Source: Bugula neritina (taxonomy: Eukaryota > Animalia > Bryozoa). Taken from it: DNA of 64,000 bases. The stretch spans positions 18,149,700 to 18,213,699 of the forward strand of contig OZ037768.1 in the NCBI GenBank assembly GCA_964035545.1. The letters run 5' to 3'. The notes under the pieces were generated by a model, which worked only from the letters and a program-made list of their open reading frames with translations, made no database searches and was not told the DNA's origin. Every line of letters begins with the position of its first letter. Within the stretch, counting starts at the first letter, position 1. The position numbers were made by a program, and so were the translations under genes. This document shows, piece by piece, positions 2,325 to 34,069 of the stretch.

Positions 2325-2947
2325 TTGTCAAGCTTTAGTATTATTCGAAATACTATTTAATTTTTTTTAGGGAAATTCAACATTAGATTTTACACTGATT
2401 AGTTGTTTTACTTTAAATGCTCTTTCTGTGCTTAAACGTTTGTTTTCCATGAGTTTTTCATATACTATATAAAATAGTTGTTATATGCTTCAACATCACG
2501 TTTGTGTAATGTTACTCATCTGTTATGCAGGTCTTGCTATCTATTGCCCTACTGATCTATTGCTATATCTTCACTGTATTTAGTATTTAAATTAAAGTCA
2601 ACGATCTTATTTAAACATAAAAAGATATGCAAATTAAAAATGCCTATATTGCTAGCCATGATTAGTATAACATTATTGTTGCTATAAATTTTTTATAAAA
2701 ATAAAAAGTACATACAACTTTATAAATTTCAAATATGTACATATTGACAACTTAATTAGATTTTTAACTAGGGCATTAAAAAGTGAATAATGAACTGATG
2801 AAAAATTAATTGACTTTACCAGCTTTCATCTGCTATTGTTTTCTCTTTTGATGGTTGCGAATTGAGTCTAGACTATTACTATATATAGAGTATGCTGATT
2901 TTAAGTCACGAAAACACAGGTCTGGATTTGAACAATTCAACTGCAGG

Positions 2948-5900
2948 CTAGTCGGCAGATGATGTGAACATCCATGTGTGCAACTGTCCTGTATCGGAAG
3001 TTGATAGTATACTTGGTGTACCACAATTCTTCCAACAATGTGTAGTAATAACAGGCATATCTCCACCTTCGACATCTGGCAAGTGTCCATCATGAGTGAA
3101 GCATGGTGTAGCTTCAATGTTGCTTTCTATTTTCGATATGTTATATATCCTAATCTTATTATCCTTTCCTGAAACCAAACAGCATAATATATACCTACTG
3201 ATATACATATATCTACGGTTATTTACATATCTACCGATTTATTGTATATATCTACTGTTTTACATATGACAACTGATGACGGCAAGAAATAGAATCACCA
3301 GATGCTTAGATATGCTAGGAATATGTGCAGCAGTTTGTATTGAATGGTACGAGAGACTTTGAAGGCTGTTGGCTTTCGGCTGGGCCAGGTCAAGCAGATC
3401 CTGCAAAATCCTACATGTTTCTAACTACATCATATTAACTACATTACCTGATAGAGAATATAACAAAAACAACACTCTCACTACGTTTTCATGCTTCGCA
3501 TTATGCGAATGAACTTTTCCAAATAGTTGCATCAAATGAAATCACAACCAAAAATTCATCTGCACAAGCATTCATCAGAATATTGCGACGCAATGGAAAT
3601 ACAGTGTATATTTATTCATTGCAAGTAGAGCTATACCTGATATAGATAACCAATCACTGAAACTCTGACATATGAAGTTGTTGAGTGATTTCCGGCGGGT
3701 CCAAAGTGATGATGTTAGAGTTGTCTGCACTCGCTCTTTCAGTGAATATCGAATGTCGTATATGTACAACTGATTGTTATCGTTGGCTAGCAAGAGCTCA
3801 TTAGTACCTTTACCACATGCCGACCAAAATTTACTCTGAAAACATAGAAATATAATTATTTACTATTGTAATAAATTACTTTGGTTAAGCCATTTATTAG
3901 ATATTAGCACGTGTCATATAATACATCATACTCTATGTTGAGTGTTTAAAAAATGCTACAGAAAATTTCTAACAGCAAAAATTCCGCATTGTTACCTTAA
4001 GTAACAATTATTATAAAATTAAAAGCCTTAGTAACTATAGTTTGAATATCACGTTGTAAATAGTATTGGAGAGTTATTACAAGATGAAGTATATATCTAT
4101 ATACAATAAAATCAACATGGGACACCTGGTCAGTGGATGGTGCAGCTAACATGGAAGACTGAGATTGTCTTGTATCAAGTGTATAGAGTGAGCCAGTTCT
4201 AGCCCCACAAACAACCAGCAGGTTCTCTCCAGAGCAGATGATAGCAGACGTAATATCTGCCTGCTTAGAGTCAGAGGCTAATGATGAAAATAAACAAATA
4301 CATGTATTATTGTAATCTGTAAAATTATTAATTATTTGCTGAGGCAGAGTTCTTGGATTTCAAATGATACTATTAATAGGAATACTGATACAACATACTA
4401 TGAGAGCCAATGGTCTGCTGAGTTGAGACATCACACCAACAAGTGTTAGCCAGTGTGTCCGAACCCACAAGTAACGAATCACCAACCAGGCTAATAACTG
4501 GCATCAGCTGTGACTCTTCAAACAACTTGAAAGTGAATAGCTAAAACACAACACAATTAAATCTTAAACTTTTATTTTAATCAATTTAAAAAAATTCCTA
4601 TTTGAACAAGTGAGCATAAATTGTAATGCAGTATATATTATGCTGTTCATGCTGTATATATAAGCAGTTTCTCATTAACGCTGTTCACAAAATAACAAAA
4701 CTTTAGATTGGTCGAATATTTAAAAACCAACAAATTTTAACATTTATTTGTAAAAAACTGCTACAATTACTATATAGTATATATACAACATATAAATATA
4801 TAATTTAATACAAATAACTAAATTTAATAGCAGAAATATTGTTTGTTCCTCTGCAATTATCAAAGGCAGTGAAGACTATGCAACTACAGCGTGTAATGTA
4901 CATAGCCAGTTCTGTGAGGCCTTAAGATTTACAAACAACCTTATTGTAAGGCTCACACTAATTTGACTGAAATATTTTCAGTGTGCAATAAGCAATCCAA
5001 AAAGAAAAAATTACCAGAGGTATGGTAGCTATTGACGAATCATTTAGCATCTCAGGAAGTGTGTGGAGAAATATAGAACTGGATCCAAACTCTGTTCTTG
5101 CTATTAAATTTTTGTTCTAAAAAAAATTACAACTCAAATTCAACAAGTTATCCATAGAAATTGAAAGCTTTATTCCGCTAAACATATTATTGGATAATGG
5201 TGCATGCAGACGTATAAAATTGAGAGCTTTATTTCACTAAACATACTTGGGGAATGTTAAATGCAGACAAGAAAAGGTGAAGCTACATATTGAGAAAAAG
5301 TAGTCTCTAATGGCAACATGAATGGAACACATTTGAAGAAAAATTACCTTAAATGACATAGGTGAAGAAACGACACTATTGCAAGAGCTGTTACTTGGTG
5401 CAGCAGCTATAATGGAAATCTCTCGGTCTTTTGAAAGAATATCCGCTTCATCATCAACAACTCTCTCAGGCAGTTTGTAAAGTAATAATTCATTGTTAGA
5501 TAGTTCGGAGGTACCAAGTAAAATATCTAAAATAAAATATAATAAGTTATATAAAAACACCACAAGTATGACATATGTTGTACAGAACTTCAACTGACAT
5601 ATGTGAAGTAAAACTTTAAAAATGATATACCACAATTATATGTTTAGTTCAACTTGTACTGTTGCAAATCTTTAGAAAGCAACAAGAAGTAGTTCATGAA
5701 TAATCAGAAAAGTACATTTAATGGAGAGAGCTGTACTGTACATGAAAAGGCAGTAGTAGACTAATGTATACCAGAAAATATATTCATGTTTACAAAATGG
5801 CCATCTTGGAGGTAACCACAATTGTGGAAAAACTAAAACCAACACGATAATGAAACAAAGCTAAATTAGGTTAACATGGCAACTTTTACAGCACACTGTT

Positions 5901-6133
5901 ACACGTAGTGTGGTGATAGTGTAGATACAAAAACGATAAAGACCTGCAGCTTGGCACTAACATTGGTTCTCAGATCCACACCATTGAGCAGATTTGATAG
6001 ATTTATCTGTTTCATACATGCTAACATGCTGATATCTCTTTGTAGAACTAAACAGCCAGTCGTCGTAATAGCAGGCTTCATGCGAAACCTCAGAGAAAGT
6101 TAAAAACTCTTCTTTAGGAAGAACCTCAGCCAT
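2948..6133 (-). CDS. WDR73: WD repeat-containing protein 73
   Basis: Minus-strand exons 6133-5962, 5526-5348, 5116-5015, 4540-4399, 4277-4126, 3835-3637, 3168-2948(TAG), phases consistent. Motifs DDWLFSSTKRYQ, NELLLYKLP, GSLYTLDTRQ and PCFTHDGH...VITTHCW...LSTSDTGQLHTW parallel human WDR73 (DDWLVESLRLYQ, NEILHLKLP, LGLVDTRQ, PLFTHRGH...VTTHTW). An acceptor near 6165 implies an upstream non-coding exon. Confidence 0.88.
3479..3606. mobile_element. short degenerate MITE with CACT(A/G) termini in a WDR73 intron
   Basis: CACTACGTTTTCAT...ATGGAAATACAGTG imperfect TIRs. Shares TCGCATTATGCGAATG with the element at 22019-22767. Confidence 0.55.
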
Positions 6134-6460
6134 ACTGAACAACTTTATAATTATCGCAGGCTTTCTAAAAAAGAAAAAACAAAAAAGAGTTAAGGTAAGT
6201 ATCACAAAATATTACTTGATATATTTGTTTTAAAATTGTTGGATCAGTTTTTAAATTATACTATGTTTTTTTAGGAACCCTTCAAGAAAAGATTGCCGGT
6301 ATGTACTGGTTTGAGTTAAAAATGTTAAATAAAAATGTTAGTTTCTAATTATATATCTTTGCATACGATTTATATGAAAAAATGATGCATTTAAAGTTCA
6401 TATGTAAAATTATTATTCGGTGTAGTAATACGAATAGTCTGTTCTGCATAGTTAGGACCC

Positions 6461-6644
6461 ATATCTGCATGAGCATTGTTTACATATCTGCATGAGCAGT
6501 ATTTACATATCTGCAGGAGCATTATTTACATATCTGCATGAGCAGTATTTACATATCTGCAGGAGCATTATTTACATATCTGCATGAGCATTGTTTACAT
6601 ATCTGCACGAGCATTATTCATATATCTGCATGAGCATTATTCAT
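6461..6644. repeat. minisatellite, 8 x 23 bp (ATATCTGCATGAGCATTATTTAC)
   Basis: Eight contiguous units with 1-3 substitutions each and no spacers. Confidence 0.95.
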
Positions 6645-6654
6645 AATAATTATC

Positions 6655-7059
6655 AGTATCACTATTAGTATTACTATAAATTTGGATTCATACTATAACT
6701 ATAAGTATAACTAGTAATAACTACTGACTATTACTGTATTAGTATTAATACTATTACTAATAGTAATAGACAATAGTATTACTAATAGTAATACTAATAG
6801 AGTAAATGTAGTACTAATACTTACAGATATACTAATAGAGTAATAGTAATACTAATACTGATAACATTATTATTAATATTATCACATTTACTATAAGTAG
6901 TTTGAATAACATTTTAATTTACTATTAGTATTACTATTACTGACTTTTACTGAGTATTACTATTGGTATTACTATTGGAATTACTATTAGTATAACATTA
7001 ACTAGAAGTTTTAGTATTACTATTAGTATAAGTATTACTATTAGTATTAGTATTACTAT
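6655..7059. repeat. low-complexity TATTAC/TAGTAT tract; continues at 15015-15380 beyond the Gypsy insertion
   Basis: Degenerate hexamer repeats in both orientations. Similar tracts at about 16040-16400, 19185-19280 and 30090-30460. Confidence 0.85.
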
Positions 7060-7445
7060 TGTGATAGTTTTGTGGGTTGTGAATGAAACTAGTGCTTTAC
7101 ATGCTTGTTATGAGAAACAAGGCGAGAAATAAGGTAGAAGGTAGATAGCTTTATTGTAGTCCGAGTGAATCAATGGTCTTTATCCAGCGAGCTCCAGTAG
7201 TAGACTGAACTATACTGGAACTCGCTGGCTTTTATATACATGCAGGACAAAGACATTCCTTTGTTTGCCGAGATCGGAGGCCCGAAATGCCGAATATCGG
7301 CACTTCGGGAATCCGAAATGCCGAATCCGGCATTTCGGCACTTCGGTATTCCGATATGCCGAGAATCGGCATATCGGTGTTTCGGAGGACCGAAGTGCCG
7401 ATCTCGGCAACAAAGGACACACACACACAACATAAATTTACCACA
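7060..7445 (-). repeat. 3' LTR (386 bp)
   Basis: Sense TGTGGTAAA...CTATCACA; AATAAA at 7150-7155. Differs from the 5' LTR by one C/T and one AC unit. Confidence 0.97.
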
Positions 7446-7455
7446 CACACCCCCC
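7446..7455 (-). other. polypurine tract (GGGGGGTGTG)
   Basis: G-rich tract abutting the start of the 3' LTR on the element's sense strand. Confidence 0.8.
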
Positions 7456-7746
7456 ATCGGAAAGCATGCTTTCCGATAAAGAGGCGTAAACAACAACAAA
7501 CACACAACAGGAAAAGACACGACAATAAAACACATAGTCGATAAGTAACACACAAAAAAAACAAATACGGTAAACATGTAGTGACATTAATAATACAATG
7601 ATAGAAAAAAAACAGGGGAAATTATGCACACACAAGAAAACAGAGCATGAATAGGCACATACATTACATGAAGAACTTACACACATATATATATATAAAA
7701 AAAACAAGGAAATAAGAATAGGAAAGAAAATACTAAACAAATAGTC

Positions 7747-8535
7747 TCAGCGGCGGTCTCCAGATCGGCCCCGCTCCAGGCGGCTAACACGTCTCCTGAG
7801 TTGCCCCAGCTCCTCCTCATACCTGCGGAGCTGCCGACGTAGATGCTGTACCTCCTCTGCCAACTGGGCCGACGTCTGGTGTCTGGGACGGTCGGTGGTA
7901 GGACGTCGCTGGCGGTGCGTCTGCTTCTCGCCCGCCGCCGAGGGCCGGGGGCCTAGGTCCGATGAATCGGTCCTGGCGCCTGGTCCGACCCGTGCCAGTA
8001 TGACCCGAAGTGGCTGGGTGGCTGCCGGTTGGGGTGTCGCGGCGGGCTCCCCTTCTTCTTCCCGAACAGGTTTACACGCGGGGAATCCCAGGGCGAGAGC
8101 AGCCCGTTTATGGGGATCCGCCACGTGTGGCAGCACCAGGTCCCGAAAGTCGGGAAAGGAGGCCTGGTCTACAGCAAACGTGTAGCCCGTGTGACAGTGA
8201 GCTATGCGTTGATGCCTCAACACATAGTCTCTCTGGTAGGAGAATTCCCCACACGGGCAAAACACGTTGATGTAGTGCTGTGGGGCGTGTACACGCAACC
8301 GCCGTGCAGAGGAGAACTTCCTCTTACACTCATGGCAGATGCGGTTGCCCGGCTCACCGCAAGCTTCACCAATCTTAAGATTGGTGGGTCCAGTCACCCA
8401 ATACTGGCGGGCGACCAGGGCCCGAGGCAGAGCCAGTATTGAGGAGTTATCTTCTTCTGCTGGCAGGTGGTCGCCGTGTAGGATGCCCTGCTCCTCCCCG
8501 GCCGTGAGCTGGAGCTCGACCGGTTTGCGGAACAC
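7747..8535 (-). CDS. retrotransposon accessory ORF3b: two C2H2 zinc fingers plus C-terminal coiled coil
   Basis: CHECKRKFSSARRLRVHAPQH fits C-x2-C-x3-F-x5-L-x2-H-x3-H; second finger CPCGEFSYQRDYVLRHQRIAH (fingers at 8337-8197). Heptads LAEEVQH LRRQLRR YEEELGQ LRRRVSR LE. Frame open from about 8622 with no ATG of its own. Confidence 0.85.
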   Translation of the reverse strand: MFRKPVELQLTAGEEQGILHGDHLPAEEDNSSILALPRALVARQYWVTGPTNLKIGEACGEPGNRICHECKRKFSSARRLRVHAPQHYINVFCPCGEFSYQRDYVLRHQRIAHCHTGYTFAVDQASFPDFRDLVLPHVADPHKRAALALGFPACKPVREEEGEPAATPQPAATQPLRVILARVGPGARTDSSDLGPRPSAAGEKQTHRQRRPTTDRPRHQTSAQLAEEVQHLRRQLRRYEEELGQLRRRVSRLERGRSGDRR

Positions 8536-9119
8536 ACCTCTGTGGAGGAGGTGGCGGCCTGCTGGCTGGTAGAAGCCGAAGCAAGGGCCGGTGGGAGGGG
8601 GGAGTCGGACCGACTGGCCTCCTCAATGTCCATACGCTCCTCTAGAATAGATAGTAGAGGCTGTGATAAGCCGGTCTCACTATCGCCGAAATTTGGCACA
8701 GGTGTGTATGGAGTTAAATTAAAAACAGAGGGCCGAGGTGTATCGCAGAAATTGACTGAGCCTACGTCGTGATTTAACAAAGTATCAATGGCAGAGTCAT
8801 CTCCAAGATCCATCTCGGCCTCCGGTTCTAAGAAATCAGAACCAAGTAAGTCTAGTAAAGACCAGTCTACTTTAGTTTGACTAGACTCCGCAACTGGAGG
8901 ATCTAATCTAGAAGAAATACCTGATTGCGTGTCTGGTAAAGTAATTCCCATAGCTGCTGATAGCGTTTGGAGAACAGTATTAAAATCAAAATGAGTATTA
9001 GAATCAGAATTTAGCTTGAGCTGTAACTGCCATGCGAGCTGTGTGAAATCAGAATGAGAAATGGCCGTACCTCGTGCTTCAGAAGTATTACCTGCTGAAG
9101 CCCGAGTTGCGTGGCTCAT
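8394..9119 (-). CDS. retrotransposon accessory ORF3a: acidic, Ser/Pro-rich; probably the N-terminal half of a frameshifted ORF3
   Basis: ATG at 9119 overlaps the pol-tail TGA (ATGA); alternative ATG at 9188. Acidic-hydrophobic tract DWSLLDLLGSDFLEPEAEMDLGDDSAIDTLL. Overlaps ORF3b in the -1 frame. Confidence 0.65.
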   Translation of the reverse strand: MSHATRASAGNTSEARGTAISHSDFTQLAWQLQLKLNSDSNTHFDFNTVLQTLSAAMGITLPDTQSGISSRLDPPVAESSQTKVDWSLLDLLGSDFLEPEAEMDLGDDSAIDTLLNHDVGSVNFCDTPRPSVFNLTPYTPVPNFGDSETGLSQPLLSILEERMDIEEASRSDSPLPPALASASTSQQAATSSTEVCSANRSSSSSRPGRSRASYTATTCQQKKITPQYWLCLGPWSPASIG

Positions 9120-12100
9120 GGGAATTTCCCCCGGATTTCGAAAAGACAACTCGTGTGATCGAGTGTCTTCCGAAATTCGGTCGGCCATTTCATCTTCCTG
9201 GTGGAATTCTCCGGGGTGATGGAGGGAATTTCCAACCAAGATGGGGTGGTAGTCAGTGCGGGGGGGTCGTCCTCAGGAGGGGGCCGCTCCAGGTGCCCTA
9301 CAGCATAGTCTGCCAGGTATCTGGGGGGTCTTCTTGACCGCTGGCTCCTCTCAAGTGAAACAGGCACTGGTGGTGTTGGTGGCTCCTGGGCTGCCCTAGT
9401 AGGGGGGTCCCCGTCTACCCCGTACGGGGGTGGGGGTGTCCTCCCCCAAGAAGGGTGGTGGTTCAAGGGCTTGCCGCTGTTCCTGCTCTCGCTCCGCTCT
9501 CTGCTGCCGCTCCAGCTGCTCTATCAAGGAGGCCTGCTCTTGGTCCGTCTCCCTGGGGACCGTAATTTCCACCTCTCGGGGCTGGGTGGCCCGTCCTCGA
9601 CGGTTGGGCTGACGGTGGGGCTCCAGGAGGGGTGGAGCCTGGCCCACCGCGTCTGGACTGGCATGGTAAGGTTTGAGGCGCTGCTCGCTCTGGACGGAGA
9701 TCTGTTCAGAGCGCTCCACACGGTACGTGTGGTTGGGCAGCACCTCCACTACGCAGTAGGGACCGACGAACTTGGGCTGAAGCTTAGCCGACTGTCCGCA
9801 TCGCCTACGGTAGCTCACCATCCAGACCCAGTCTCCCACCTGGTACAACGGGGGCTCCTCGGAGTCCTCTGTGCGGGTCTGCCACTGCTGGGTGCGCAGC
9901 GCATCATGAGCTTTGCCCATGATGTCCATCAGACCCTCCACATATTCGTGTACCGGTGACTCGGGGGCAGGAACATGGTACGTCAGGTGTTCCGGGACCC
10001 GCGTCTCTCGGCCTAGCATCAGGAAGTTTGGGGTCTCCTGCGTGGCGGAGTGTGGTGTGCTGCGGTAAGCCCGCATGATCTGCGGCAGCACCACGTCCCA
10101 TTCTTCCTGACCGCGACCAAGGAGCAGGCTCCGGAGCGCGTCACCCAACATCCTGTTGTTCCGCTCAACGACTCTGTTCCTTTGCGGGTGATATGGGGTG
10201 GTCCGACTCTGGTTCACCCCCCATATCCGGCAGAGGTCTCCCATGAGCTGGGACTGGAACTGGGCGCCCTGGTCCGTATGTATCTGCTCGGGCAAACCGA
10301 GGTAACAGAACACATGTTGGTCCAGGGTCCGGGCCACCGTGGGGGCGGTTGCGTCTGGAATAGCCAGAGCATCCGCCCACCGGGTAAAGTGGTCCGTGAG
10401 CACCAGTATCCAGGTGTTCCCTCTGGCGGATAACGGCATAGGCCCGACGAGGTCTACCGCCACTACTTGCCACGGTCAACCAGCGTACAGCCGGCGTCGA
10501 CCAGTGGTTTCCGTGGGGCGGCCATGCTTGCTAGCTTGGCAGACCTCGCATTGCCGTACCCGCAGTCGTACGTCCCGAGTCATTCCGGGCCAATACCAAC
10601 GCAGCCGCAGACACCTGATGACCCGACTGACTCCAGCATGAGCCTGCTTATGGGTGTCCCAGATCAGTTCCCGCCGGAGGGCGCGTGGACAGACGACGCG
10701 GTCCCTCTCCTGCTGGCGGTTGTCTGCTGCTAACGTTATCATCAGGAGGCCATCAGGACTGACCTTGAGGGCATCCCAGCGACGACAGAGGAGTTGGAAC
10801 TCAACGTCTCCCTGCCGCTGCTGCTCCTCGCTAGGTCGTCGGCCCTCCTTCTTGGCCCGGAAGATGTCCGCTACCGCGCCGGGTAGCGTCTCCTGGAGTC
10901 GGCACAGTTCCTTGACGTTCTGGTGCAGAGTAGGGTTGGCGTGGAGTGCCTGGACACCGTCCTGGTGGGTTTCGGTCCGAAGATGGCCGTGCTCCCACTG
11001 GTAGGCGGCGCCCTCCACTAGCTCTGCCTCCACGTCAAGGCGAGCGGGTCCCCCGTCCCGCTGTTCAATGTGTAGGCATTGCTTACAGTCCTCTACCGGC
11101 CGGCGGCTCATGCCGTCGGCGTTCCCATGCTTCCGGCCTGCACGGTGCTCTATCCGGTAAGAGAACTCAGCAAGAATCTCCAGCCAACGAGCCACCTGGC
11201 TCGAGGGCTCTGCACGTTTACACAGCCATATTAGTGATGCATGGTCTGTTCGCAGACGGAACGATTTCCCATACAGATATGGCCGAAAGTGCTTGACCGC
11301 CTTGACTACCGCTAGGAGTTCCTTCCTAGTGGTGCAGTAGTTCTTCTCGGCGGCCGCGAGAGTCTTGCTGTAGTAAGCCACGATCACCTCACTTCCATCC
11401 TGGACTTGAGACAGGACGGCTCCCACGCTGTGGTCGCTGGCGTCGGTGTCCAGGATGTACTCCTTGGCTGGATCAGGATACGCCAGGATTGGCGCTTCCA
11501 TTAGCCGTTGCTTGAGGTGGTCGAATGCCTGCTGCTCCTCCTGTGTCCACTGCCACCGGACTCCCTTTGCGGTCAGCCGATTCAACGGCTGGGCCACTCC
11601 TGCGAACCCAGGTATGTACTGCCGGTAGTACCCTATTAGGCCCAGGAAGGCACGTAACTCAGGGAGGTCACGGGGGACAGTCCACTCCTTCACAGCTTGT
11701 ACCTTCTCTGGATCGGTAGCGACCCCATCACGGCCAACCACATGGCCCAGGTACGTGACTTCTGGCTGCAGGAGTGCACACTTGGAGGGCTTCAGCTTCA
11801 GTCCAGCTGCCCGGAGACGGTCAAAGACCTCCCGCAGACGACTGACATGAGTCGAGAAGTCTGGGGAGATGACAATGACATCGTCCAGATAGATGAGGAG
11901 GGTCTTCCAGTGTAACCCACTGAGGACTTGCTCCATGAGTCGTTGGAATGTTGCCGGAGCGGACGTTAGTCCGAATGGCAGTACTTTCCATTTCCAGAGC
12001 CCGTCGCGAGTAATGAATGCTGCTTTGTCCTGGGCATCAGGACTGAGGGGCACTTGCCAGTACCCGCTAAGCAGATCCAAAGTACTGAAGTACTTGCTAC

Positions 12101-13700
12101 CCGCGAGGGCATCTAGAGACTCATCTATCCGTGGGAGAGGGTAGGCGTCCTGGATGGTAACGCTGTTAAGTCTGCGGTAGTCCACGCAGAATCTCCAGCT
12201 ACCATCCTTCTTCTTGACCAGGACCAATGGGGAGCTTCACGCACCGTGGGCAGGCTCAATCAGATCCCGGTCCAGAAGATCCTGTACCTGTCGGCTCACC
12301 TCCTTCTCCTTCTCCGGGCCTAGACGTCGGGTAGGTTGCCTGATGGGAGTGGTGCCGGCTGCCAGGGGTATCTCGTGGGAGATAACCTTAGTCAGCCCCA
12401 TGTCTCCATCGCCACGACTGAAGACATCACTGTACTCCGCGAGTAGTTGAGCCAGTACTTGGCGTTCAGTACTACTCGTACAGTTTCCGCATGCTCCGCC
12501 ATACAGGTCAACCAAGTGCTCCGGGACTGCTCCTCGTCTGGTGTGAGGGGGGTTCCCCTGGGTGTCGGCCACTGTCTCCAGTGCCGGACCCACATCCGCT
12601 TCCTGGATGGAGTGGTACTTCCCCACCAGCGCTCCGGCCGATAATCGGACAGGTTCCGTGAAGGGGTTGATGCACTGCACGAGGAGCTCTTGCCGACAAT
12701 CTAGCCGATTCAGGCTGTTTGCTAGTCGGATGGCTCCGTGCGTTCCTTCAACCATCCCCAGGCCGGCGATCCCCTTGCAGTTGACTCTGCATCGGAGAGT
12801 CGCCTGGGACCTCCCCGGAACTGTGCAGTCCCGCACTACCTGGACTCCGCCCACCAAGGGTCTGCCAAACTTGTCAACACAGACAAGTTCCTTCCCAGCC
12901 ATCACCACCACTGACTTCTGGAAATCCATGTGACACTGGTGTTTCTCCAGGAAGGGCATTCCCAAGATGGCGTCCTCCTTCAGCTGGCTGACTATGAACG
13001 TCTCGTGAATTGCTTGATCACGGACGCGTCCAGGCAGTGAGATGACGCCGTAGAAAGGAATGCATGATCCATCCGCCAACGTACCATGCGCACCTTCATA
13101 CGGCTCGAGGCTCGCCCGCTCTCGAGCCCCAAGAGTGTCAAAGAGACGCCGACTCAGCAGGTTGGTAGTGCACCCAGTATCCAGTAGGAATGTGGCAGCT
13201 TTACCCGAAATCTTCCCGGGCAGGAAGTAGCTGCTTCCGTACGGCTGGGTGCTCCTGGAGCGGTCAGTCTCTGGGGGAGACACAACTTGGGTCCGCACAG
13301 CGGGCCTCCTCTTCGTCTTAGAGACAACGGGGGTTTTCTGAGGTCGGGAGGGTAGCTTGGGGTACTCTTGCGAGTAAGCTGAATCTTCCTCCACGATCTC
13401 CTCGGGCAACCCCGCGAACCGGTTACGGAGTGGCCAGGCTGGAGGATCGGGTAGACCTTGCGGTCTCCGAGATCTCCGAGGTGCCTGTCATCCGGTTTCT
13501 TCTAGTTTCATCCGGGTATCGAGTGGCATGGCAGGAGGATCGGGTAGGCCTTTCGGTCTCCGAGATCTCCGGTTTGCTTGCCACTCGATGTAGGTCGACT
13601 CTGGAGAGGTCTCTTCTGTTGTCTTCCGAGTCCTATCCCGGACCGGATTGGCGTGGGGCCCACGGGTGGTGGAATTCACCGTGAGCCTCGGGTGTTTAAA
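9116..13700 (-). pseudogene. pol: pol polyprotein (protease, RT, RNase H, integrase) disrupted by 3 in-frame TGA and 1 frameshift
   Basis: FLLDTGC protease; [22 protein letters not shown]; DTDAS...ELLAV...TDH RNase H; H-H-C-C, AVD/TDQG/VER and GPY integrase motifs. ORFs 13488-13679, 12237-13409, 10476-12227 and 9396-10463 share one frame, separated by TGA at 13488, 12237 and 10476. The typical tail RSQRSRRPPRYLADY lies in a shifted frame ending at 9116. Confidence 0.95.
13657..13700 (-). promoter_or_regulatory. -1 programmed ribosomal frameshift signal (gag-pol)
   Basis: T TTA AAC heptamer in the gag frame (13700-13694), 6-nt spacer, then stem GGCTCACGG/CCGTGGGCC (13687-13679 with 13665-13657). 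pol is in the -1 frame. Confidence 0.88.
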
Positions 13701-14575
13701 GGCTTCTGTCCCTTAGGGCAGTGCCTTCTCACATGTCCTGGCATCCCGCACTCCCAACAGGTGGGCAGAGGGGGGCGGACAGGGTCGTCCCGCGAGCGGG
13801 GAGCCCGCCTGTCCGTCTGGTTGCGCTGCAACTTCGCCACCGTAGCCTGCAGGCCTTTCATCATGCTCATCAGCATGTTGAGCTGCGTCTGCTCAGGCGA
13901 CGGAGTAGCTGCTGCTGCCACTTGTGGGGTTGGGGGTACCTCTTCTGTATCTCCGGCCACCTGGCGAGCTGCGTAGTTCGCCCTCCGTGGTTCTTCTACT
14001 TGGAAGTAGGCCTTCCCCATCTCTAGTGCCTCGTCCAGGCTCTTGACCTTCGCGGCCAGCCAGTACCGCTGGAGGTCCGGGTGGTTCACGCTCCGGAAGA
14101 ACGCGTTAAAAACGAGGCGCTTTCGATCTTCGCCAGTGGCGTGACCGAAAGCAGCCTGAGCCAGGCGCTCTACCTCGTTAGCGTGATCTTCCAGAGATGT
14201 CCTTCGGTCTCTCCTCATCACTTGTAGCTGGTCTGACGCCTCTTCCGTGGTCAGGCCGAACCGGGCCCTAAGAGCCCGCATAATGTGGGCTTCGTCGGGT
14301 CCTAGTGCGAAGTTCCTGGCCCGGCCTGTCAGACAGGCCCGGAGTTGGAGGACGCGCACCCGTACTGGCCATTCAGCGGTGGTGGCCACGTCCTCGAACT
14401 CCTTGATGAACTGTTCCACGTCTCCATCTCCTCCGAAAGTCGGGGGCTGGAGGCGATACCTGTCACCAGGTGATGCCTGTCCTTGCCCCCGCAATCCTTG
14501 GAGGGCTGTGACCAGCGCCTCAACAGTGAGGGCTGGTGGTGCTGCTGCCTCAGGGGCTGGGTCCCCTGGGGCCAT
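13676..14575 (-). CDS. gag: Gag (capsid-like region plus CCHC nucleocapsid), intact, 299 aa
   Basis: PPTFGGDGDVEQFIKEFE...LRARFG capsid-type motifs; CWECGMPGHVRRHC knuckle; starts 30 nt after the PBS. Confidence 0.94.
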   Translation of the reverse strand: MAPGDPAPEAAAPPALTVEALVTALQGLRGQGQASPGDRYRLQPPTFGGDGDVEQFIKEFEDVATTAEWPVRVRVLQLRACLTGRARNFALGPDEAHIMRALRARFGLTTEEASDQLQVMRRDRRTSLEDHANEVERLAQAAFGHATGEDRKRLVFNAFFRSVNHPDLQRYWLAAKVKSLDEALEMGKAYFQVEEPRRANYAARQVAGDTEEVPPTPQVAAAATPSPEQTQLNMLMSMMKGLQATVAKLQRNQTDRRAPRSRDDPVRPPLPTCWECGMPGHVRRHCPKGQKPLNTRGSR

Positions 14576-14605
14576 CCTATTCCTCTCAGCAACTAGCTAT
14601 TCGTA

Positions 14606-14625
14606 GAATCCCACCGCTGCCACCA
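14606..14625 (-). other. primer binding site complementary to tRNA-Leu
   Basis: Sense TGGTGGCAGCGGTGGGATTC, 1 nt inside the 5' LTR. The + strand GAATCCCACCGCTGCCA-CCA equals the 3' end of metazoan tRNA-Leu(AAG/TAG class) as I recall it. Confidence 0.9.
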
Positions 14626-14626
14626 A

Positions 14627-15014
14627 TGTGATAGTTTTGTGGGTTGTGAATGAAACTAGTGCTTTACATGCTTGTTATGAGAAACAAGGCGAGAAATAAG
14701 GTAGAAGGTAGATAGCTTTATTGTAGTCCGAGTGAATCAATGGTCTTTATCCAGCGAGCTCCAGTAGTAGACTGAACTATACTGGAACTCGCTGGCTTTT
14801 ATATACATGCAGGACAAAGACATTCCTTTGTTTGCCGAGATTGGAGGCCCGAAATGCCGAATATCGGCACTTCGGGAATCCGAAATGCCGAATCCGGCAT
14901 TTCGGCACTTCGGTATTCCGATATGCCGAGAATCGGCATATCGGTGTTTCGGAGGACCGAAGTGCCGATCTCGGCAACAAAGGACACACACACACACAAC
15001 ATAAATTTACCACA
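14627..15014 (-). repeat. 5' LTR (388 bp) with TATA box
   Basis: TATATAAAA at 14805-14797, AATAAA at 14722-14717, palindrome array at 14824-14984. Confidence 0.97.
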
Positions 15015-18000
15015 CTATTACTATTAGTATATGTATTACACTTAGTTTTCAGTTCAGTTTGGGGGAGTTTCCCACTAAGAACCCCTGGAGGCTGAATGCA
15101 TGGGAACTCGATATATGCATATATAGTTTTAGTGTTTTACTATTACTATTATTATTAGTATTACTAGTAATAGTATTGGTTTTAATATTACATTTACTGT
15201 TTAGTGATCTACTTTCAGTTTTACTGTTTACTCAGTTACACTTACTGTTAGTGTTACCCTTACTGTTATACTTACAGTTACACTTACTGGTAGTGTTACT
15301 GTTAGACTTAGTGTTAACTGTTATGATTATCATTAAGACATTATGATTATGAGTGATTATCATTATGATTATGATTATGAAGTTGAACACCATACGATAA
15401 TTATAATATTAATTATAAACGTATTTCGCAATTTTATAAATATATTCGAATATCGACCGAGTTTGCATATGAGAAATGTGAATACAGAATGACAATTGGC
15501 AACAGCCAAACTCAATCAATCGTACTTATTGTTAATGTGAACAGTGAATGTAAATTCAAATTGACAGCCACGAGTGATGAAACTGCAAACTTTCAAGGAT
15601 TTGTTCACGTTAAAAAGTGATTTTATCACTAATACCTATTGAAGAGGTCAAGCAAGTAAGTGAACACGTAATGGCGCGTTTACTTAAAAAGCTAACGAAC
15701 GCTTTGACCAATGGCGTAAATTATTTTAGTTCTACTTCAATTAGCTGCAGGTAAAACATTGCTTGAACAAAGACATGTTCGCGAGTAACTAAATGCAATA
15801 GCAATTTGAACCAGGAAATTACAACTTCAACTTGACTAAAATAATTATAATATTGTACTTTCATAGGTGAAGGGTTGGGGAATAGTCACGCTGGCCACTG
15901 CACCTTGGAAATTTTTTTTTTTATAAACAATACCAATAGTCGAGCGCACAAAAAAAATTAGATTAGCAACAGGTACGTATCATGCTGCTGTTCAAAAGTG
16001 TTACAGTTAATGTATTATGTTTTTTTATTAATTAAATTTAATTACTATTAGTATTACTATTAGTAATACTAATACGTATTAGTATTAGACGTATTACTAT
16101 TACTATTAGTATTAGTATTAGTAATACTAATAGTTATAGTATTACACTTACACTTACAGTAATACTATTAGTATTACTATTAGATTTAGTGATTACATTT
16201 AATGCTGTACTCATTGACTCAACTCATATAATCATTTTCATACTCATAGTGAGAGTCACTGTCAGTAGTTACCTGTTACTTAGTCATAGTGATACTGATG
16301 AGTGATGGTGATACTCTTACTGATAGTCAGAGTCACTTTGACAGTGATAGTAAAACTAAATGTAGTATCAATGACAATAGACATAGTCATACTAATATTG
16401 TGGTAAATATTAGGAATTATCCCCCTTGACACATTACTTATGGCTATTTTCTAAATACTGTAGTTACAGCTAAGTTTATGGCGTAACTTTCTAATACCTT
16501 AAATACTATGGCTATTATTAAGCCTTTGGCATAGTAAACATTTAATCCCCTTTCCCCAATTATAAGTTACAATACGCATACACTTGGTTGCGTTCATTTT
16601 TGCTGATTCATGTAAACCGACAGTTGGACCGATTTCGGCAGGTGGATGCAGGCAGACCGAATGTCGGTTGCCGATATTTCCAGTGTCGGTTACCGACATG
16701 ACGAATGTCGGTATCCTCTGCCGAACATCGGCCCACTGTCGGTAGAAGGTTCTAGAAGTCCTTTGTTCCACTGGTATAAAAGGACACACATTTTAGAGCT
16801 TCAGTCACTTGTGGACTGGAGCTCACACTGGACACTTCTCTCTACTACAATAAAGTACTGCAAGCACACGGCAACCTCTCTCTCTTGTCTCTTCTATAAC
16901 AAGGAGTTATGTTCTCTGCCTGATTTCATTCTATAACCCACAAAACTACTACAATATTGAGTAATACTAATAGTAATGCTCATAATAATAGTGGCCATAG
17001 CTTGGCTTAAATCTGAAGTCTCAGATTTGAATTAATCAAGTTGACTCGAGTACTTTTACTATTACTATTAGTATTAATTCACCTTACACTTACCGTTACA
17101 GTGATTGAAAATTTCCGCCCTAGTTGAAGTTAAAGTTATGCTCTTTTACATTAAATTATTTTTTGATATGAGTATTAAAACCAATATCACTTTCAATATG
17201 AATGCTGAATCTGATATTTCTGTGAGAGCTAAATTTGTCCTAACATCCAACTCTCAAAACAAGTTCTTTTCTTGACTTTCTTGAGCTCGCACACTGCGCC
17301 ATTTTGAGCAGAAAGCTATTGTGATCACCGATAGGTAGCTTGGTAATGCTTGGTTATAGTCATAATGATTAATTTCCAAACCAGTCTCATAGGCAGGTAT
17401 CATGTATATTGTAATAGATTTTGGAGTTATCTTTTTTTACATATACATATTCGGGAATCTTTTGAGTTTTGGGAGTTATCTTTCTCTTATGCATACAAAT
17501 TTGGGAGCCCTGTTTCTTTTTGTCATGTGAATCTGAATTCGGACATGCATTCGGGCGTTAAATTCTGTCAGATTCGGACGATAAAAGTGACTTGCAAAAT
17601 AGAATTGGTCACATGGCTTAGCAAATTAAATAAAAGGAATAAATACATAGCTAATTGTGTATTAAGCTTTTAGTCAATAATTAATTATAAAATAACTACA
17701 CCAACACATGAGACAAAATTGCAAATTAATTATTCAATTAATGAGAGCTTTTTCCGGATAAATTTCTGGTAACAGTGAACTTAACGTATTAACTTATTTA
17801 TGTTGACCAATTTTCATTGAGATAGGTGAAAAACTTTGAATGACTTCATAGTTTAAGAACAACCTGCAGCAAGTTATTGTTCTAATAATATATATCCTCT
17901 GACAATGTGAAAACAATATTATTTGCAAGTGAATGCATTTTTTCAATGCCTGCAATTCTGAGCAAGTTGTTTACCTATTTGTGTAAAAATTTCTAACTTC

Positions 18001-19184
18001 CTCTTTTATTTTTTGAAGAATATTTTAATAGGGCATTCAGTGAGACTGTTTTTTCTTACCTGACAAAAGTTGGGGTGTCACCGACCAGCTAAACTGTGGG
18101 AAAAACTGCTCTTACGTTTTACCTGCATTTTGTTTCTACTCTTACTGGGTGAACTTTTCATTGTTCAATTCTAACTGATGGGTTCAAACTCTCTCTGTAA
18201 ACTTCTAGCTATTGAATTTGTAGAGTCAAACGCACTATGGTGATCTCAAATACATGTTTTATTCTAGTTCATTCAACCTGTTGTTTTTGAAACATTTTAC
18301 TTTCCCCAACAGTTAATGCCGGTAAGACATGGGAGATTGTAGTGAGCTTTTACTGGTGAGTTGGTGAGAAATCTGCTGATCCTATAATTTATAATAGTAA
18401 AATTCTTACTTCTATAGACACATTAAACTTGATAATTCGAAAATTATTGGACTACATAGGTTTTGTTTAGAACTATTTTAATTTTCCTACATTTTGCATT
18501 TATTGCCCCACAAGTTCTGGTTTGCTCTTCGGAATTAGCTGCTCTTGGCTATTGTTCCACTTCACTACCTCAATAGTCTGATTGGTTGAGTAGTGCTTAA
18601 TAAAAGGTTGGGTGAGCTGAGGGTTGTTCAAAGATCATTCAAATAATTATTTATGTTGACAATACTTCAATTATTTGTACACTGTGCTGGCAATTGGGAT
18701 AAATAATAATCTGATTTAATACAGTTTTTCAAAACTTTCTCACAATGTAAGTGTATATTTGTATATAATATGTGTTGAATGTTATTATATTTTTACTGTT
18801 CCTGTAGATCTGGCTTTAGAATGCTTTGAGTTTGTATAGTTGGCATTGTTGGCACAGCATTTACTTTTTGCAAGGTTTCAGCTGCTACATAAAATGTAAT
18901 ATCATAACCAAAATAGAGTTGAGCTACATGCAATAGCAATTTCTTCATGCTACCTCTTTTTACAACTGTAAATTATTTGTCAAAAATATTAAGTGCAGAA
19001 AACAGTAATACTAATATAAAACATTTCCTAATTTTTTCACCTTTTTCTTTACTTAAGTTTAAGAAATGAGGTGTTCTTTGATTTGATTGATCTAAGTAGT
19101 CCTAATTTCTATGAGCACCACATTTTCAAGTCTATAAATGAGTGAATTATTATTGTAATTGTTTTGCAGAAGTGTTACTTTACA
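15015..19184 (+). repeat. copy 1 of a ~4-kb tandem segmental duplication (blocks X 15015-15620 and Y ~15625-19184)
   Basis: 15385-15620 aligns by eye to 19280-19568. 15660-16040, 16980-17400, 17597-17690 and 18054-19184 align to 29720-30080, 30460-30830, 32599-32690 and 32941-34069. Confidence 0.92.
16399..16953 (+). mobile_element. solo LTR of a related Gypsy family (555 bp)
   Basis: TGTGGTAAAT...AACCCACAAAACTACTACA termini shared with the full-length element's LTR; TSD ATAT; TATAAAA near 16775 and AATAAA near 16849; absent from the paralogous block at about 30360-30460. Confidence 0.92.
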
Positions 19185-19906
19185 CTATTACTATTAGTAT
19201 TAGTATTACATTTAGTTTTATTGTTAATGTTTACTCAGTTACTGTTAGTGTTACACTTACTCTTAGTCTTAGTCTTACTCTTATGATTATGAACAATGAG
19301 AACACCATATGATAATATTAATATTAATAATATTAATTTAAATTTTAAACCTATTTCACAATTATATCATTATATATATAATATATTCAAATAATAATAT
19401 TGACCGAGTTTACAGATGAGAAAGGTGAATACAGAATGGTAATAGACAACAGCCAAACTCAATCAATCGTTCTCATTGCCAATGTGAACAGAGAATGTAA
19501 ATTCAAATTGACCGCCTCGAGTGATGAAACTGCAAATATTCAAGGATTTGTTCACATTCAAAGTCATTAGATGACTAGAGGCTAAAACCATGCGGAAACT
19601 CTATCTAGCCCAAAAATGGGCTGTTGCGTGCGGATTTCAGACCGATTTCATGCGGACAAAATGCTGAGCGAGTAGTGCGGAAGGCTTGTGCGGGTTTGAT
19701 CTAATTGGCTGGTTGCCATTAGCCAGCACAATTTGTGTTTTAATAATTAATGCGCAGTTTAATTTTTTATCGAACTGAATTAAAACATTTTCTTATGGTT
19801 TGCATTTTTCGCTGTTATAATATCTGTGTAAAACTGGCCAGCTTAAGCTTATCAAATAATTAGAATATAAATATTAATTGGTTGTTATAGAATTCTTCAA
19901 CTCACA

Positions 19907-26115: not shown

Positions 26116-26712
26116 TACATTAACACTTTCAAAAATATGCCCATAGTATGGCCTAGAACAGTCTATTTTCTTCTAGACCATACGGCGTAGGGGATCGTAT
26201 GAGTACCACTACATCCCTGGCTATATCTATAGATATTATTAACATTTCAACTAATTTTTAAAGCAAACAAACTAATAACAGTGATCAGGGTGCAGTGGTC
26301 AGGTGGCCCATTGTGCCTGTGTGGCTAAGTTGAAAATAAATGTGGCTCAAGGAAAATTTATTTTAGAATTTGCTATTATACCAGTTAAGAAATGTATAGA
26401 AAAGGAATGGCAACAATATCAGTAAAAACTGGGCTTGTTACCTTTGAGTGTAAAAAGTTATGAAGCTTTAATGACATCTTGAAAAATTTACAAAAAGTAG
26501 GTAAAAACAGTTTTTGACTCACCTTTTCAACATGTATGCTCCGCAAGTGTTAAAACTACAATGGCTGAATAATTATGCCATTGCCTTTTTATTAAAAAAA
26601 AACATCACAACTCTAAGTCAATAAGTTCCCTCACCATTTAACCGGCTTTTTGTACCCCTATGACGGTCCTTTGTGTCCCCCCTTACCCTTAATATGATAT
26701 CCCAATATCTAT

Positions 26713-27205
26713 TGTAGTAGTTTTGTGGGTTGTAGAATGAAATCAGGCAGAGAACATAACTCCTTGCTATAGAAGAGACAAGAGAGAGGTTGCCGTGTGC
26801 TTGCAGTACTTTATTGTAGTAGAGAGAAGTATCCAGTGTGAGCTCCAGTCCGCAAGTGACTGAAGCTCTGAAATGCATGCCCTTTTATACTAGGGGAACA
26901 AAGAGACTTCTAGAACCATCGACCGACAGCGGGCCGATGTTGGGCAGGAGATGCTGATATTCGTCATGTCGGTAACCGATACTGGAAATATCGGCAACCG
27001 ACATTCGGTCTGTCTGCATCCACCTGCCGAAATCGGTCCAACTGTCGGTTTACATAATAAAAGAATTGAACTTAACCAAGTGTATTGTGCTTGTAAGGGG
27101 ATTAGCTATTCACTTTAATTTAAACGTTAGCTTTATTGTCTGAGTCAGGACTTGGCTATGGGGAACTGGGGAACAGGACTAAGGGGTATATTAATATTTA
27201 CTACA
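26713..27205 (-). mobile_element. solo LTR, same family as 16399-16953 (diverged 5' part)
   Basis: TGTAGTAGTTTTGTGGG...ATTTACTACA. About 350 bp is closely similar to the reverse complement of 16600-16953. Flanked by a 52/54-bp direct repeat. Confidence 0.9.
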
Positions 27206-27758: not shown

Positions 27759-28183
27759 CAGTGTGGTATATTAAGAGTGTTGACTTTAAACCATGAAAAA
27801 TCATTATGTCGCTAATGGTACCGCAAGTTTATATAAGTTATAAAGGAAAAATTTTGCCACTTTTGTGATTTTATTTTTTTTTTATATTATGTGTCCATTT
27901 TTTTTAGTTTTGTTTATTGGTAAAGTTTTAAACATATTTTCAATACATATAAAATTTTAAAAAAAATTAAAACTTAATCATGCACGTAAATACAAAGCTA
28001 TAAAGTTTAAGCTTCGCTGTGATTACAATGTGAATATTAATTGAATAATGCTTGCAATAACCATTTTACACAAAATATGTTACAGTTGCTATAAATGTAA
28101 GACTAGTAAATTGGATGCAAATAGGCACGGTGATACTATTTAATTTATGCTATTTTTGAAATTTGTAGTAAATATTCGGCATG

Positions 28184-28253
<70 letters not shown>

Positions 28254-28259
28254 CATGCC

Positions 28260-28345
<86 letters not shown>

Positions 28346-29038
28346 AATATATTATATATTTTTATGTTATATATTGTTATATTATATATATATTATATAA
28401 GTATAATAATATTATATATAATATATATATATTATAATAATATATTATATAATATAATAATATATTATTATATTATATATTATATTATATATATATTATA
28501 TATAGTATATATATATAATATCATATAAAATATATTATTATATTATATTATTTATAATATATATATATATATTATAATAATATATTATATATTATATTAT
28601 ATTATATATATATATTATACAAGTATAATAATATTATATATAATATATATATATTTTTTAATAATATATTATATATTATTATATTATATATTATATTATA
28701 TATATATTATATATATATAATATCATGTATAATATATTATTATATTATATATTATATTATATATAATATATATATATTATAATAATATATTATGCATTAA
28801 TATATTATATAATATATTATATATATATTATATATATAATAACATCATATATAATATATATAATATATTATTATATTATATATTATATTATATATATAAT
28901 AATATCATATATAATATATTATTATATTATATATTAAATTATATACATTATATATATATAATATAATGATAATATATATAATATATATATATATATATAC
29001 ATATAATAATATTATATATTATATATATATAATAATAT

Positions 29039-29071
<33 letters not shown>

Positions 29072-29520
29072 ATATATATACATGCCAAATATTTACTACA
29101 AAATTCAAAAATAGCATAAATTAAGTAGTATTACCGTGCTTATTTGCATCCAATTAACTAGTCTTACATTTATAGCGACTGTAACGTATTTTGTGTATAA
29201 TGGTTATTGCAAGCATTATTCAATTCATATTCACATTAAAATCACAGCGAAGCTTGAACTTTATAGCTTTGTATTTATGTGCATGATTGAGTTTTAATTT
29301 TTCTTTTAATTTTATGTGCATTAAAAATGTGTTTAAAAACTTTACCAATAAAAAAAAATAAAAAAAATGTTTACATAAAATAGAAAAAAAATAAAATAAC
29401 AAAAGTGGCAAAATTTTTCCCTTATAACTTATATAAACTCGCGGTACCAATCTCGGCATAATGGCGCCCATATGATTCCGTAAGATTTGCTAATGGCAAC
29501 ACTCTTAATATACCACACTG
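27759..29520. mobile_element. hAT-like non-autonomous foldback element with ~430-bp arms and a (TA)n core
   Basis: Termini CAGTGTGGTATATTAAGAGTGTTG/CAACACTCTTAATATACCACACTG; 8-bp TSD ATAAATTT (27751-27758 / 29521-29528); arms 27759-28185 and 29079-29520 are reverse complements; AT-only core about 28185-29080. Confidence 0.92.
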
Positions 29521-32600: not shown

Positions 32601-34069
32601 TAGAATTGGTCACATGGCTTGGCAATTGAAATAAGAGAAATAGATTCATAGCTAATTATGTAGTAGGCTTTTAGCCAATAATTAATTATGGAATAATGTC
32701 ACAAAACTATGGTAGCAGTGTGACTAGTTCGAAAAGTCTGGTAGTCAGAAGTGTATAAACAAGTAGCATACAGCTTGCTAATTCAGTTGAGACTAAATAG
32801 AGCTGTGAATATAAGTAGACTTTATTTCTCCAGCAAGATATACACAGATCAACTTATGAAAATGAACTATATTGTAAACACAACTGCCTTAGTATTTATA
32901 GTAAACATAAAAACTTGGACATTCAGCAAAACTTTTTCCGTCTTACCTGACAAAAGTTCAGGTGTCACCGACCAGCTAAACTGTGGGAAACACTGCTCTT
33001 ACCGTTTACCTGCGTTTTGTTTCTACTCTTACAAAGTGAACTTTTCATTGTTCAATTCTAACTGATGGGTTCAAACTCTCTCTGTAACCTTCTAGCTATT
33101 GAATTTGTAGAGTCAAACGCACCATGGTGATCTCAAATACATGTTTAATTCTAGTTCACTCACCCTGTAATTTTTGAAACATTTTACTTTCCCAAACAGT
33201 TAATGCCAGTAAGACATGAGAGATTGTAGTGAGCTTTTACTGGTGAGTTGGTGAGAAATCTGCTGATCCTATTTATTATAGTAAAATTCTAGCTCCTAGC
33301 TTCACATTGAACTTGATAGTTATAAATATGTTTGTTTTAAGGTCCTATACAGCTACATAAGTTTAGTTAAGAACTATTTTAATTTTCCTACATTTTGCAT
33401 TTACTGCCACACAAGTTCTGACTTGCTCTTTGGAATTAGCTGCTCTTGGCTATTGTTCCGCTTCACTACCTCAATAATCTGATTGGTTGAGTAGTACTTA
33501 ATAAAAGGTTGGGTGAGCTGAGGGTTGTTCAAAGATCATTCAGATAATTATTTATGTTGACAATACTTCAATTATTTGTACACTGTGTTGGCAATTGGGA
33601 TAAATAACAATTTGATTTAATACAGTTTCAAAACTTTCTCGCAATGTAAGTATATATTTGTATATAATATGTATTGGCTGTTATTATATTTTTACATTTA
33701 TGAAAATTTGACTTTAGAATACTTTGTATTGTTGACACAGCATCTACTTTTTGCAAGGTTTCAGCTGCTACATAAAATGTAATATCATAACCAAAATAGA
33801 GTTGAGCTACATGCAATAGCAATTTCTTCATGCTACCTCTTTTTACAACTGTAAATTATTTGTCAAAAATATTAAGTGCAGAAAACAGTAATACTAATAT
33901 AAAACATTTCCTAATTTTCTCACCTTTTTCTTTGCTTGAGTTTAAGAACTAAGGCGTTCTTTGATTTGGGTAATCTAAGCAGTCTTAATTTCTATTAGCA
34001 CCACATTTTCAAATCTCTATAAATGAGTAAATTATTATTGTAATTGTTTTGCAGAAGTATTAGTTTACA
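29695..34069 (+). repeat. block Y' of the segmental duplication; putative promoter and 5'UTR exons of the plakin gene
   Basis: Homologous to about 15625-19184. CpG-containing segment with GGCGCG, CCAAT and TTCGCGAG; donor CAG|GTACGT at 30016; exon-like 30631-30791 (TTTTCAG| ... TG|GTAAGT). Confidence 0.75.
32360..32574. mobile_element. PIF/Harbinger-type MITE
   Basis: 25-bp TIR AGCTGCATGTACACAGGCCGATTTT with 1 mismatch; TTA TSD. Confidence 0.85.

Follow-up and report, generated by a model that had tools for sequence, protein, structure and literature searches.

Foamy-virus Tas and the other transactivators of complex retroviruses (Retroviridae) are encoded at the 3' end, act on the LTR and carry an acidic activation region. 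To our knowledge, no Tas-type transactivator has C2H2 fingers. In Arabidopsis, the VANC proteins of VANDAL transposons bind a short motif that is densely arrayed in the element's own non-coding DNA and derepress the element (PMC5735166). Chromoviruses are Ty3/Gypsy elements whose integrase ends in a chromodomain; this chromatin-type module closes pol and adjoins the PPT (PMC3605345, PMC12440569). The animal Gypsy element Cer1 of C. elegans makes CERV, a non-env nuclear accessory protein with a Cys-rich part that multimerises (PMC10309623). Finally, non-env extra ORFs occur in LTR elements of bdelloids (PMC5408684) and in the Drosophila MDG1 group as sORF1 and sORF2. The sORF1 of this group is nuclear, with a predicted helix-turn-helix (PMC11952523).

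We analysed a window of 64,000 nucleotides (the whole stretch of DNA under study) from Bugula neritina. It contains a Ty3/Gypsy element with a real, deeply conserved module at its 3' end, which belongs to an animal Gypsy clade and is not captured by Pfam. Like VANC, the module is element-encoded, has conserved and variable regions and comes with a short motif repeated densely in non-coding DNA of the element itself, as seen in two elements. However, VANC belongs to a plant DNA transposon and no homology is shown; binding and derepression are demonstrated for VANC (PMC5735166) and putative here. The place of the module is that of the chromatin-type module of chromoviruses (PMC3605345, PMC12440569). 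In contrast, it consists of a several-hundred-residue extension with a double finger and a coiled coil, for which fusion to integrase is suggested, and Pfam scans of the window frames and the family proteins matched no chromodomain. CERV resembles it in the features named above but shares peptides with Gag, is produced by splicing, exports RNA, has other domains and does not lie in the env slot (PMC10309623). The bdelloid ORF3s encode esterase, exonuclease, TM or coiled-coil proteins, and the word "zinc" is absent from the accessible text of PMC5408684, whereas the MDG1-group sORFs are small and mostly upstream of gag (PMC11952523).

The literature covered, which left most subscription journals, Repbase Reports and supplements outside its scope, contained no account of an animal Gypsy element with C2H2 fingers and a coiled coil encoded downstream of pol. 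The accessible parts of PMC8556966, PMC2774666, PMC13524379, PMC6431247 and PMC13228809 do not mention the module. In the first of these, Gypsy clades are named and the terms ORF, zinc and PBS do not occur. The module is uncatalogued in Pfam and in the literature found; such elements may nevertheless be present, without comment, in Repbase, Dfam or GyDB.

The element lies on the minus strand and spans 7,955 nt (7060-15014). Its GC content is 55-62%, and that of the surrounding DNA 27-38%. LTRs with TG...CA ends, TSD, PBS and PPT identify it as a Ty3/Gypsy (Metaviridae) LTR element. The order gag-PR-RT-RH-IN (Pfam scan) is of the Gypsy type, and the best solved match of the RT is Ty3 (E 1.6e-94). 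The gag is a reading frame distinct from pol and has a slippery heptamer close to its end, and the PBS is presumably of the tRNA-Leu type. The insertion is young, since the alignment of the two LTRs (386 vs 388 nt) shows one substitution and two columns with gaps. The pol of this copy has two in-frame stops. The features are collected in the table.

Table. Features of the element and of its 3' module in the window (window positions; L015 is a metagenome locus with the same module).
Feature	Position	Strand	Basis	Remarks
TSD, 4 bp	7056..7059	.		second copy 15015-15018; in AT-rich simple repeat
3' LTR, 386 nt	7060..7445	-	LTR alignment	
3' LTR copy of the U3 array	about 7266-7406	-		
PPT	7446..7460	-		closely similar to the L015 PPT
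Coding-region stop	7747-7749	-		
C-terminal coiled coil, 4-5 heptads	7770..7866	-		
Arg-rich patch	7879..7920	-		in basic disordered linker
Short conserved linker motif	7987..8016	-		like PxVxL-type HP1-binding motifs
Compact double zinc-finger domain	8068..8439	-		Trp-led helix, C2H2 finger, C-x-C...H...C/H finger, (Y/F)xVD strand, helices
ORF3a, upstream open frame	8394..9272	-		same frame as integrase ORF
Frameshift break	8526..8545	-	ORFs, alignment, tblastn	
AT-rich island, 33-47% GC	8640..9060	-		element roughly 60%; Met at 8951
Acidic, Leu/aromatic-rich tract	8775..8867	-		putatively activation-domain-like
Integrase-tail motif R-x-x-R-x-R-R-P-P-x-Y	9290..9349	-		+1 frame; breaks near 9260-9270 and 9400-9440
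Integrase core and SH3-like domain	9396..10475	-	Pfam scan	
RT, RNase H, integrase Zn domain	10476..12236	-		in-frame stops at bounds in window copy
Protease part of pol	12237..13487	-		
gag with CCHC knuckle	13676..14596	-		slippery heptamer 13694-13700
PBS	14606..14626	-		19 nt identical to L015
5' LTR, 388 nt	14627..15014	-		TATA at LTR position 210, AATAAA at 293
U3 array, 17 CCGA/TCGG half-sites	14835..14974	-		~8-nt spacing, upstream of TATA; candidate binding site

The insertion site is a degenerate AT-rich AGTA/TACT simple repeat (6759-7059, 20% GC; 15015-15314, 31% GC). The same type of repeat returns at about 16070-16210, 19180-19260 and 30150-30450. A tandem array of 23-nt units (6437-6664) lies near the right end of the element. 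Directly after gag, at the start of pol, two 72-nt direct repeats (13419-13583) are 82% alike with 93 nt between them; a frameshift-stimulating or packaging structure is possible there. The rest of the window is intron-bearing, animal-type host DNA. It includes a plectin-repeat exon of 526 codons (53835-55415, plus strand) and, beside the element, exon-like frames of a host gene (2833-6211, minus strand), three of which were tested and had no Pfam match. Inverted-repeat arms at 27802-29463 (289 and 131 nt, 89% complementary) flank a long (TA)n, AT-rich core, which is MITE-like or a foldback. Other inverted arms lie at 16610-16956 and 26710-27055, and dispersed duplicated blocks (15449-19600 and 29717-34013), about 14-15 kb apart, share 77-95% identity.

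An earlier note on this DNA had proposed about 1.4 kb of sense coding sequence between pol and the PPT. The location is right. The stretch is not one open frame, however: in the window copy the region from integrase to the PPT consists of two frames (8394-9272 and 7747-8622), and tblastn and the alignment place the switch between the halves at the break listed in the table. Eight of nine relatives (P0003, P0005, P0008, P0016, P0022, P0087, P0123 and P0090) match both frames as one protein in tblastn. It means that this is a single coding region, broken in the window copy. Chance is excluded because the homologs reach E 4e-110. The broken copy would depend on sister copies.

Position 9119, the upstream limit given in the earlier note, is an ATG that the close relatives P0008, P0022 and P0087 do not keep; the last has not kept ATG 9188 either, and similarity to the relatives continues upstream to about 9280. 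On the other hand, the Met near 8951 is kept in close relatives amid otherwise variable sequence, and the proteins P0005, P0016, P0068, P0079 and P0154 start at or beside it. The AT-rich island around it is a candidate internal start or splice-acceptor region. Parts of the element occur in 24 public runs (best share 0.43), and contigs of four of them cover 28-30 of 30 element bins; these contigs show related copies, not expression, splicing or copy number, and runs with small shares were left out of account. A joint at 9050-9193 in one run was considered as an intron and rejected, as its ends are not splice-type.

The 3' module may be an extension of Pol and not a free ORF3. Upstream of ORF3a, the window copy has a motif that we take to be a typical integrase tail, in a frame without an upstream ATG. 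In P0087 and P0123 the tail is continuous in frame into ORF3a; in P0165 it runs in frame into the motif after the fingers, and in the distant P0133 up to the domain. A sign that in P0165 the integrase frame is also joined to the tail was too faint to count. Nevertheless, P0087, P0123 and P0165 bear deletions, P0087 and P0123 are probably one lineage, and tail-containing proteins are in frame by construction. Pfam found an integrase core or SH3 domain in none of the 22 plus 51 family proteins scanned. A weak search for proteins of 1244-3550 aa joining the core with the domain gave none among 2732 candidates, and the tail search gave one hit among 57 candidates, without an integrase core. Whether integrase and the module are fused in intact copies could go either way, and both products could exist. 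P0087 and P0165 also share a C-terminal sequence of about 40 residues, which tblastn did not place in the window; perhaps they form a non-autonomous lineage.

The core of the module is the double zinc-finger domain. The C-x2-C-x12-H-x3-H finger (from 8337) and the second, C-x-C finger (from 8262) lie where they had been reported. They are not separate fingers, since both belong to a single compact domain, about 95-120 aa long. A word search returned 21 homologs with 37-76% identity. A profile search returned 296 representatives at E<=0.001 (125 at 1e-10), of which 150 were listed; these include at least one multi-finger protein of generic type, P0148. Most of the 98-position domain is present in 103 of 164 proteins examined, and distant members have 24-35% identity to the window domain. 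Across 92 aligned domains the metal ligands are kept in 86-92, with variation at the last C/H ligand. Core residues persist as well (W14, ahead of finger 1, in 80; V90 and D91, past finger 2, in 88 and 84), and so do the basic residues of the finger-1 helix (R/K in 76, R in 67, R/K in 73). The domain occurs in two copies in P0027 and P0043, with the coiled coil at the end.

With the alignment of 92 sequences, AlphaFold predicts a compact domain (pLDDT 96.7, pTM 0.88), which supersedes a poor, shallower run with 16 sequences (pLDDT 51). In the finger region the window frames stay below every Pfam cut-off (zf-C2H2, 18.6 bits vs a cut-off of 25.2). A Pfam zinc-finger cut-off is exceeded by just two of 51 further hits: P0043 (27.7 bits) and P0148, which is unrelated. 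When the fold was compared with PDB and viral models, nothing matched at E<=0.001 (Foldseek E>=0.47) and nothing reached Z>=5, which does not imply a novel fold. The matches are limited to 50-57 finger residues of tandem C2H2 proteins, with Z at most 3.8. In Kaiso/ZBTB33, SALL4 and ZNF524, about 50-57 residues superpose at 2.3-3.8 A, and finger 1 of the window domain has the canonical spacing, C-x2-C-x12-H-x3-H. However, the window domain has an aromatic linker of five residues instead of the TGEKP-type linker, a C-x-C second finger instead of a canonical one, and extra helices and a strand in one globular domain. The best structural rows are DNA-binding tandem C2H2 proteins, and a shared fold shows no function. 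The ESM Atlas matches (0.94-0.96) are unnamed clusters and generic C2H2 clusters. Twenty proteins looked up in NCBI and UniRef are unnamed or "hypothetical", from metagenome-type assemblies, and none is a named host gene.

Around this core the transcription-factor-like layout described in the earlier note was upheld. The acidic tract is where it had put it, and so are the basic patch (from 7920) and the coiled coil, which has RVSRLE (7791) at its end. An acidic-hydrophobic window is present in 16 of 19 long N-termini, with 7.1 expected from shuffles; the signal is in large part compositional (7.1/19 by shuffling) and L015 lacks such a window. Of the C-terminal parts, 3 of 45 have one, and of the gag/pol pieces none of 4. 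The Arg-rich patch might serve nuclear localisation or nucleic-acid contact. The patch also contains one R-x-R-R, a furin-like word, where the earlier note had seen no furin site; given the absent signal peptide, this word is unlikely to matter.

The linker also has a PxVxL-like word. PxVxL motifs are putative HP1a sites in the linkers of zinc-finger proteins, according to the accessible part of PMC7655104. Of the non-close members 13 of 42 have the word, against 1.7 expected, and of the close ones 5 of 9, against 0.1 expected, by a pattern defined after seeing the sequences. Strict PxVxL is found in 15 of 42 non-close members vs 8.2 expected, and in 0 of 9 close members. The location of the word varies: it is upstream in some lineages and downstream in others.

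The coiled coil is general across the family. By a purpose-made heptad score it is present in 45 of 58 members having at least 90 residues after the domain, near the C-terminus in 41. The R-h-x-x-h-E motif, on the contrary, is lineage-specific (9 of 58 members). As for the oligomeric factor proposed earlier, self-association is supported by prediction. The trimer model of the window coil scores 0.70 vs 0.01 for the best control, although three copies lie outside the calibration, coils can pass by likeness to solved ones and the score concerns the trimer state only. Contact agreement between runs is at least 83% and partner pLDDT at least 78. For this complex score, 21 of 30 solved microbial homodimers pass the mark; the figure is 17 of 29 for eukaryotic ones, and none of 23 monomers passes.

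The same module is present in a second element. A degenerate DNA pattern gave 21 loci in metagenome contigs, one of which, L015, is true. It has a 5'-open ORF of 726 aa with the domain, which ends 32 nt before an LTR, and gag and PR follow. The PPT and the 19-nt PBS match those of the window element, and the gag is 31% identical. The contig shows a single LTR between ORF and gag, so L015 is a collapsed assembly or a tandem pair, and the pol upstream of the ORF is outside the contig's view. In the N-terminal linker of this ORF, a tandem duplication (3690-3990) gives two near-identical peptides of about 60 residues with the frame intact. A quick tree of 100 domain rows, each with more than 80 profile positions, puts the window element and L015/P0133 on opposite sides of the deepest split (SH-aLRT 98). 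The genomic context of the domain is known for few members only. The search for related loci in metagenome contigs gave 371 pattern matches, none confirmed, and viral contigs were also without a relative. Of the further loci given by the degenerate pattern, 0 of 7 in viral contigs and 0 of 22 in prokaryote genomes were true, and the PBS pattern had no match in viral contigs.

Both elements have arrays of CCGA/TCGG half-sites in the LTR, on the upstream side of the TATA box. The window LTR has 18 (shuffle mean 3.0, max 8) and the L015 LTR 21 (shuffle mean 4.3, max 10), while one pol control stretch has 3. The half-sites of the window array alternate in orientation. At the RNA level, the arrays of both elements also form stable hairpins (z -12.7 and -5.6). 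The pairing of protein and array is a co-occurrence in two elements, without LTRs of ORF-less Gypsy elements as controls, and we take it as a lead only.

Our best reading is that the module encodes an LTR-binding activator or anti-silencer of the element itself. We hold it tentatively, at a little short of an even chance, and we infer the binding, the target and the activation. The acidic tract, the double zinc finger and the coiled coil would form the element's own nuclear regulator. The product might be made from the Met near 8951, or be released from a Pol that runs on into the region, and is predicted to oligomerise. Its domain would bind the CCGA array in the LTR promoter, and the bound product could act in trans on the whole family, by increasing its transcription or by opposing its silencing by the host. 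It would work like VANC; the arrays of the window element and L015 recall those bound by VANC21 (accessible part of PMC5735166). The reading draws on several observations, namely the layout, its conservation, the LTR arrays and a place just before the PPT in two elements distant from each other, together with the predicted compact fold and self-association. Against it, the arrays also fold as RNA, the structural matches are weak, and the in-frame tail of P0087, P0123, P0165 and P0133 fits a Pol extension.

We rank this activator or anti-silencer above four rivals, of which an integrase tether comes next. According to it, the region prolongs Pol at its C-terminus, remains attached to integrase and anchors the integration complex at chosen chromatin or DNA, like the chromodomain of chromoviruses. 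The fingers would serve for DNA, the PxVxL-like motif for HP1-type proteins and the coiled coil for multimers. The in-frame tails of the four proteins favour it, although three of the four bear deletions and a protein that includes the tail is necessarily in frame with it. ORF3a shares the frame of integrase, no ATG precedes the tail in its own frame and P0087 keeps neither of the two upstream ATGs, but five proteins start at or next to the Met near 8951, and the scans and the weak long-protein search found no integrase core. The excess of PxVxL-like words among non-close members is in line with it, yet the pattern is post hoc and the strict form is absent from the close members. Likewise, the AT-rich simple repeat around the window copy may reflect a target preference but amounts to one insertion. 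On balance we consider a tether unlikely. A protein that binds the element's RNA (e.g. the U3 hairpins at the 3' end) and promotes its export, stability or packaging, as CERV does in Cer1 or Rev in HIV-1, seems less likely still. The U3 of both elements folds far better than shuffles, an Arg-rich linker goes with a predicted multimerising coiled coil, and CERV is a Gypsy precedent (accessible part of PMC10309623). Nevertheless, inverted half-site arrays fold as hairpins regardless of role, the acidic activation-like tract suggests a role at chromatin, as does the PxVxL-like motif, and the C4-type finger and G domain of CERV are not seen in the window protein.

The last two rivals are far weaker. 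A captured host zinc-finger fragment, drifting without function, would agree with the frameshifts or deletions of the window copy and of several database copies. However, the window pol is equally broken. The ligands and core residues are held at the low identity of the distant members, the order of the domains is kept, and none of the 20 proteins looked up is a named host gene. The module is not absent from sister elements, nor is it a one-off capture: it is conserved across a deep family and lies before the PPT also in a distant element, on the other side of the deepest split. We regard drift as very improbable. A divergent env or small fusogen is nearly excluded and was already largely refuted, even though the env slot is occupied and a coiled coil is present. 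As the earlier note said, there is no TM anchor: 19-residue windows reach at most 0.83 on the Kyte-Doolittle scale in both parts, and only 4 of 103 members reach 1.6, at no common place. The core is a zinc finger and Pfam scans found no env family, so the element is not an env-bearing (errantivirus-like) Gypsy.

A fuller version of the activator reading can be drawn. A deep, widespread animal Gypsy clade would encode a module laid out like a transcription factor, and its double zinc finger would be a new domain. The module would read an LTR array with CpG in its repeats, engage HP1-type proteins and activate the element. This counterpart of VANC and Tas, in frame with Pol, may double as an integration tether. 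As a whole we find this picture doubtful, though not far-fetched.

In invertebrate genomes, the domain could serve as the marker of a Gypsy clade. The general view of animal Gypsy elements is that the host supplies the factors for their transcription and, chromoviruses apart, for the choice of targets. A putative DNA-binding module that the element encodes itself, together with a candidate target in the LTR, would allow a direct test of escape from silencing or of site choice, with one domain, one array and one reporter.
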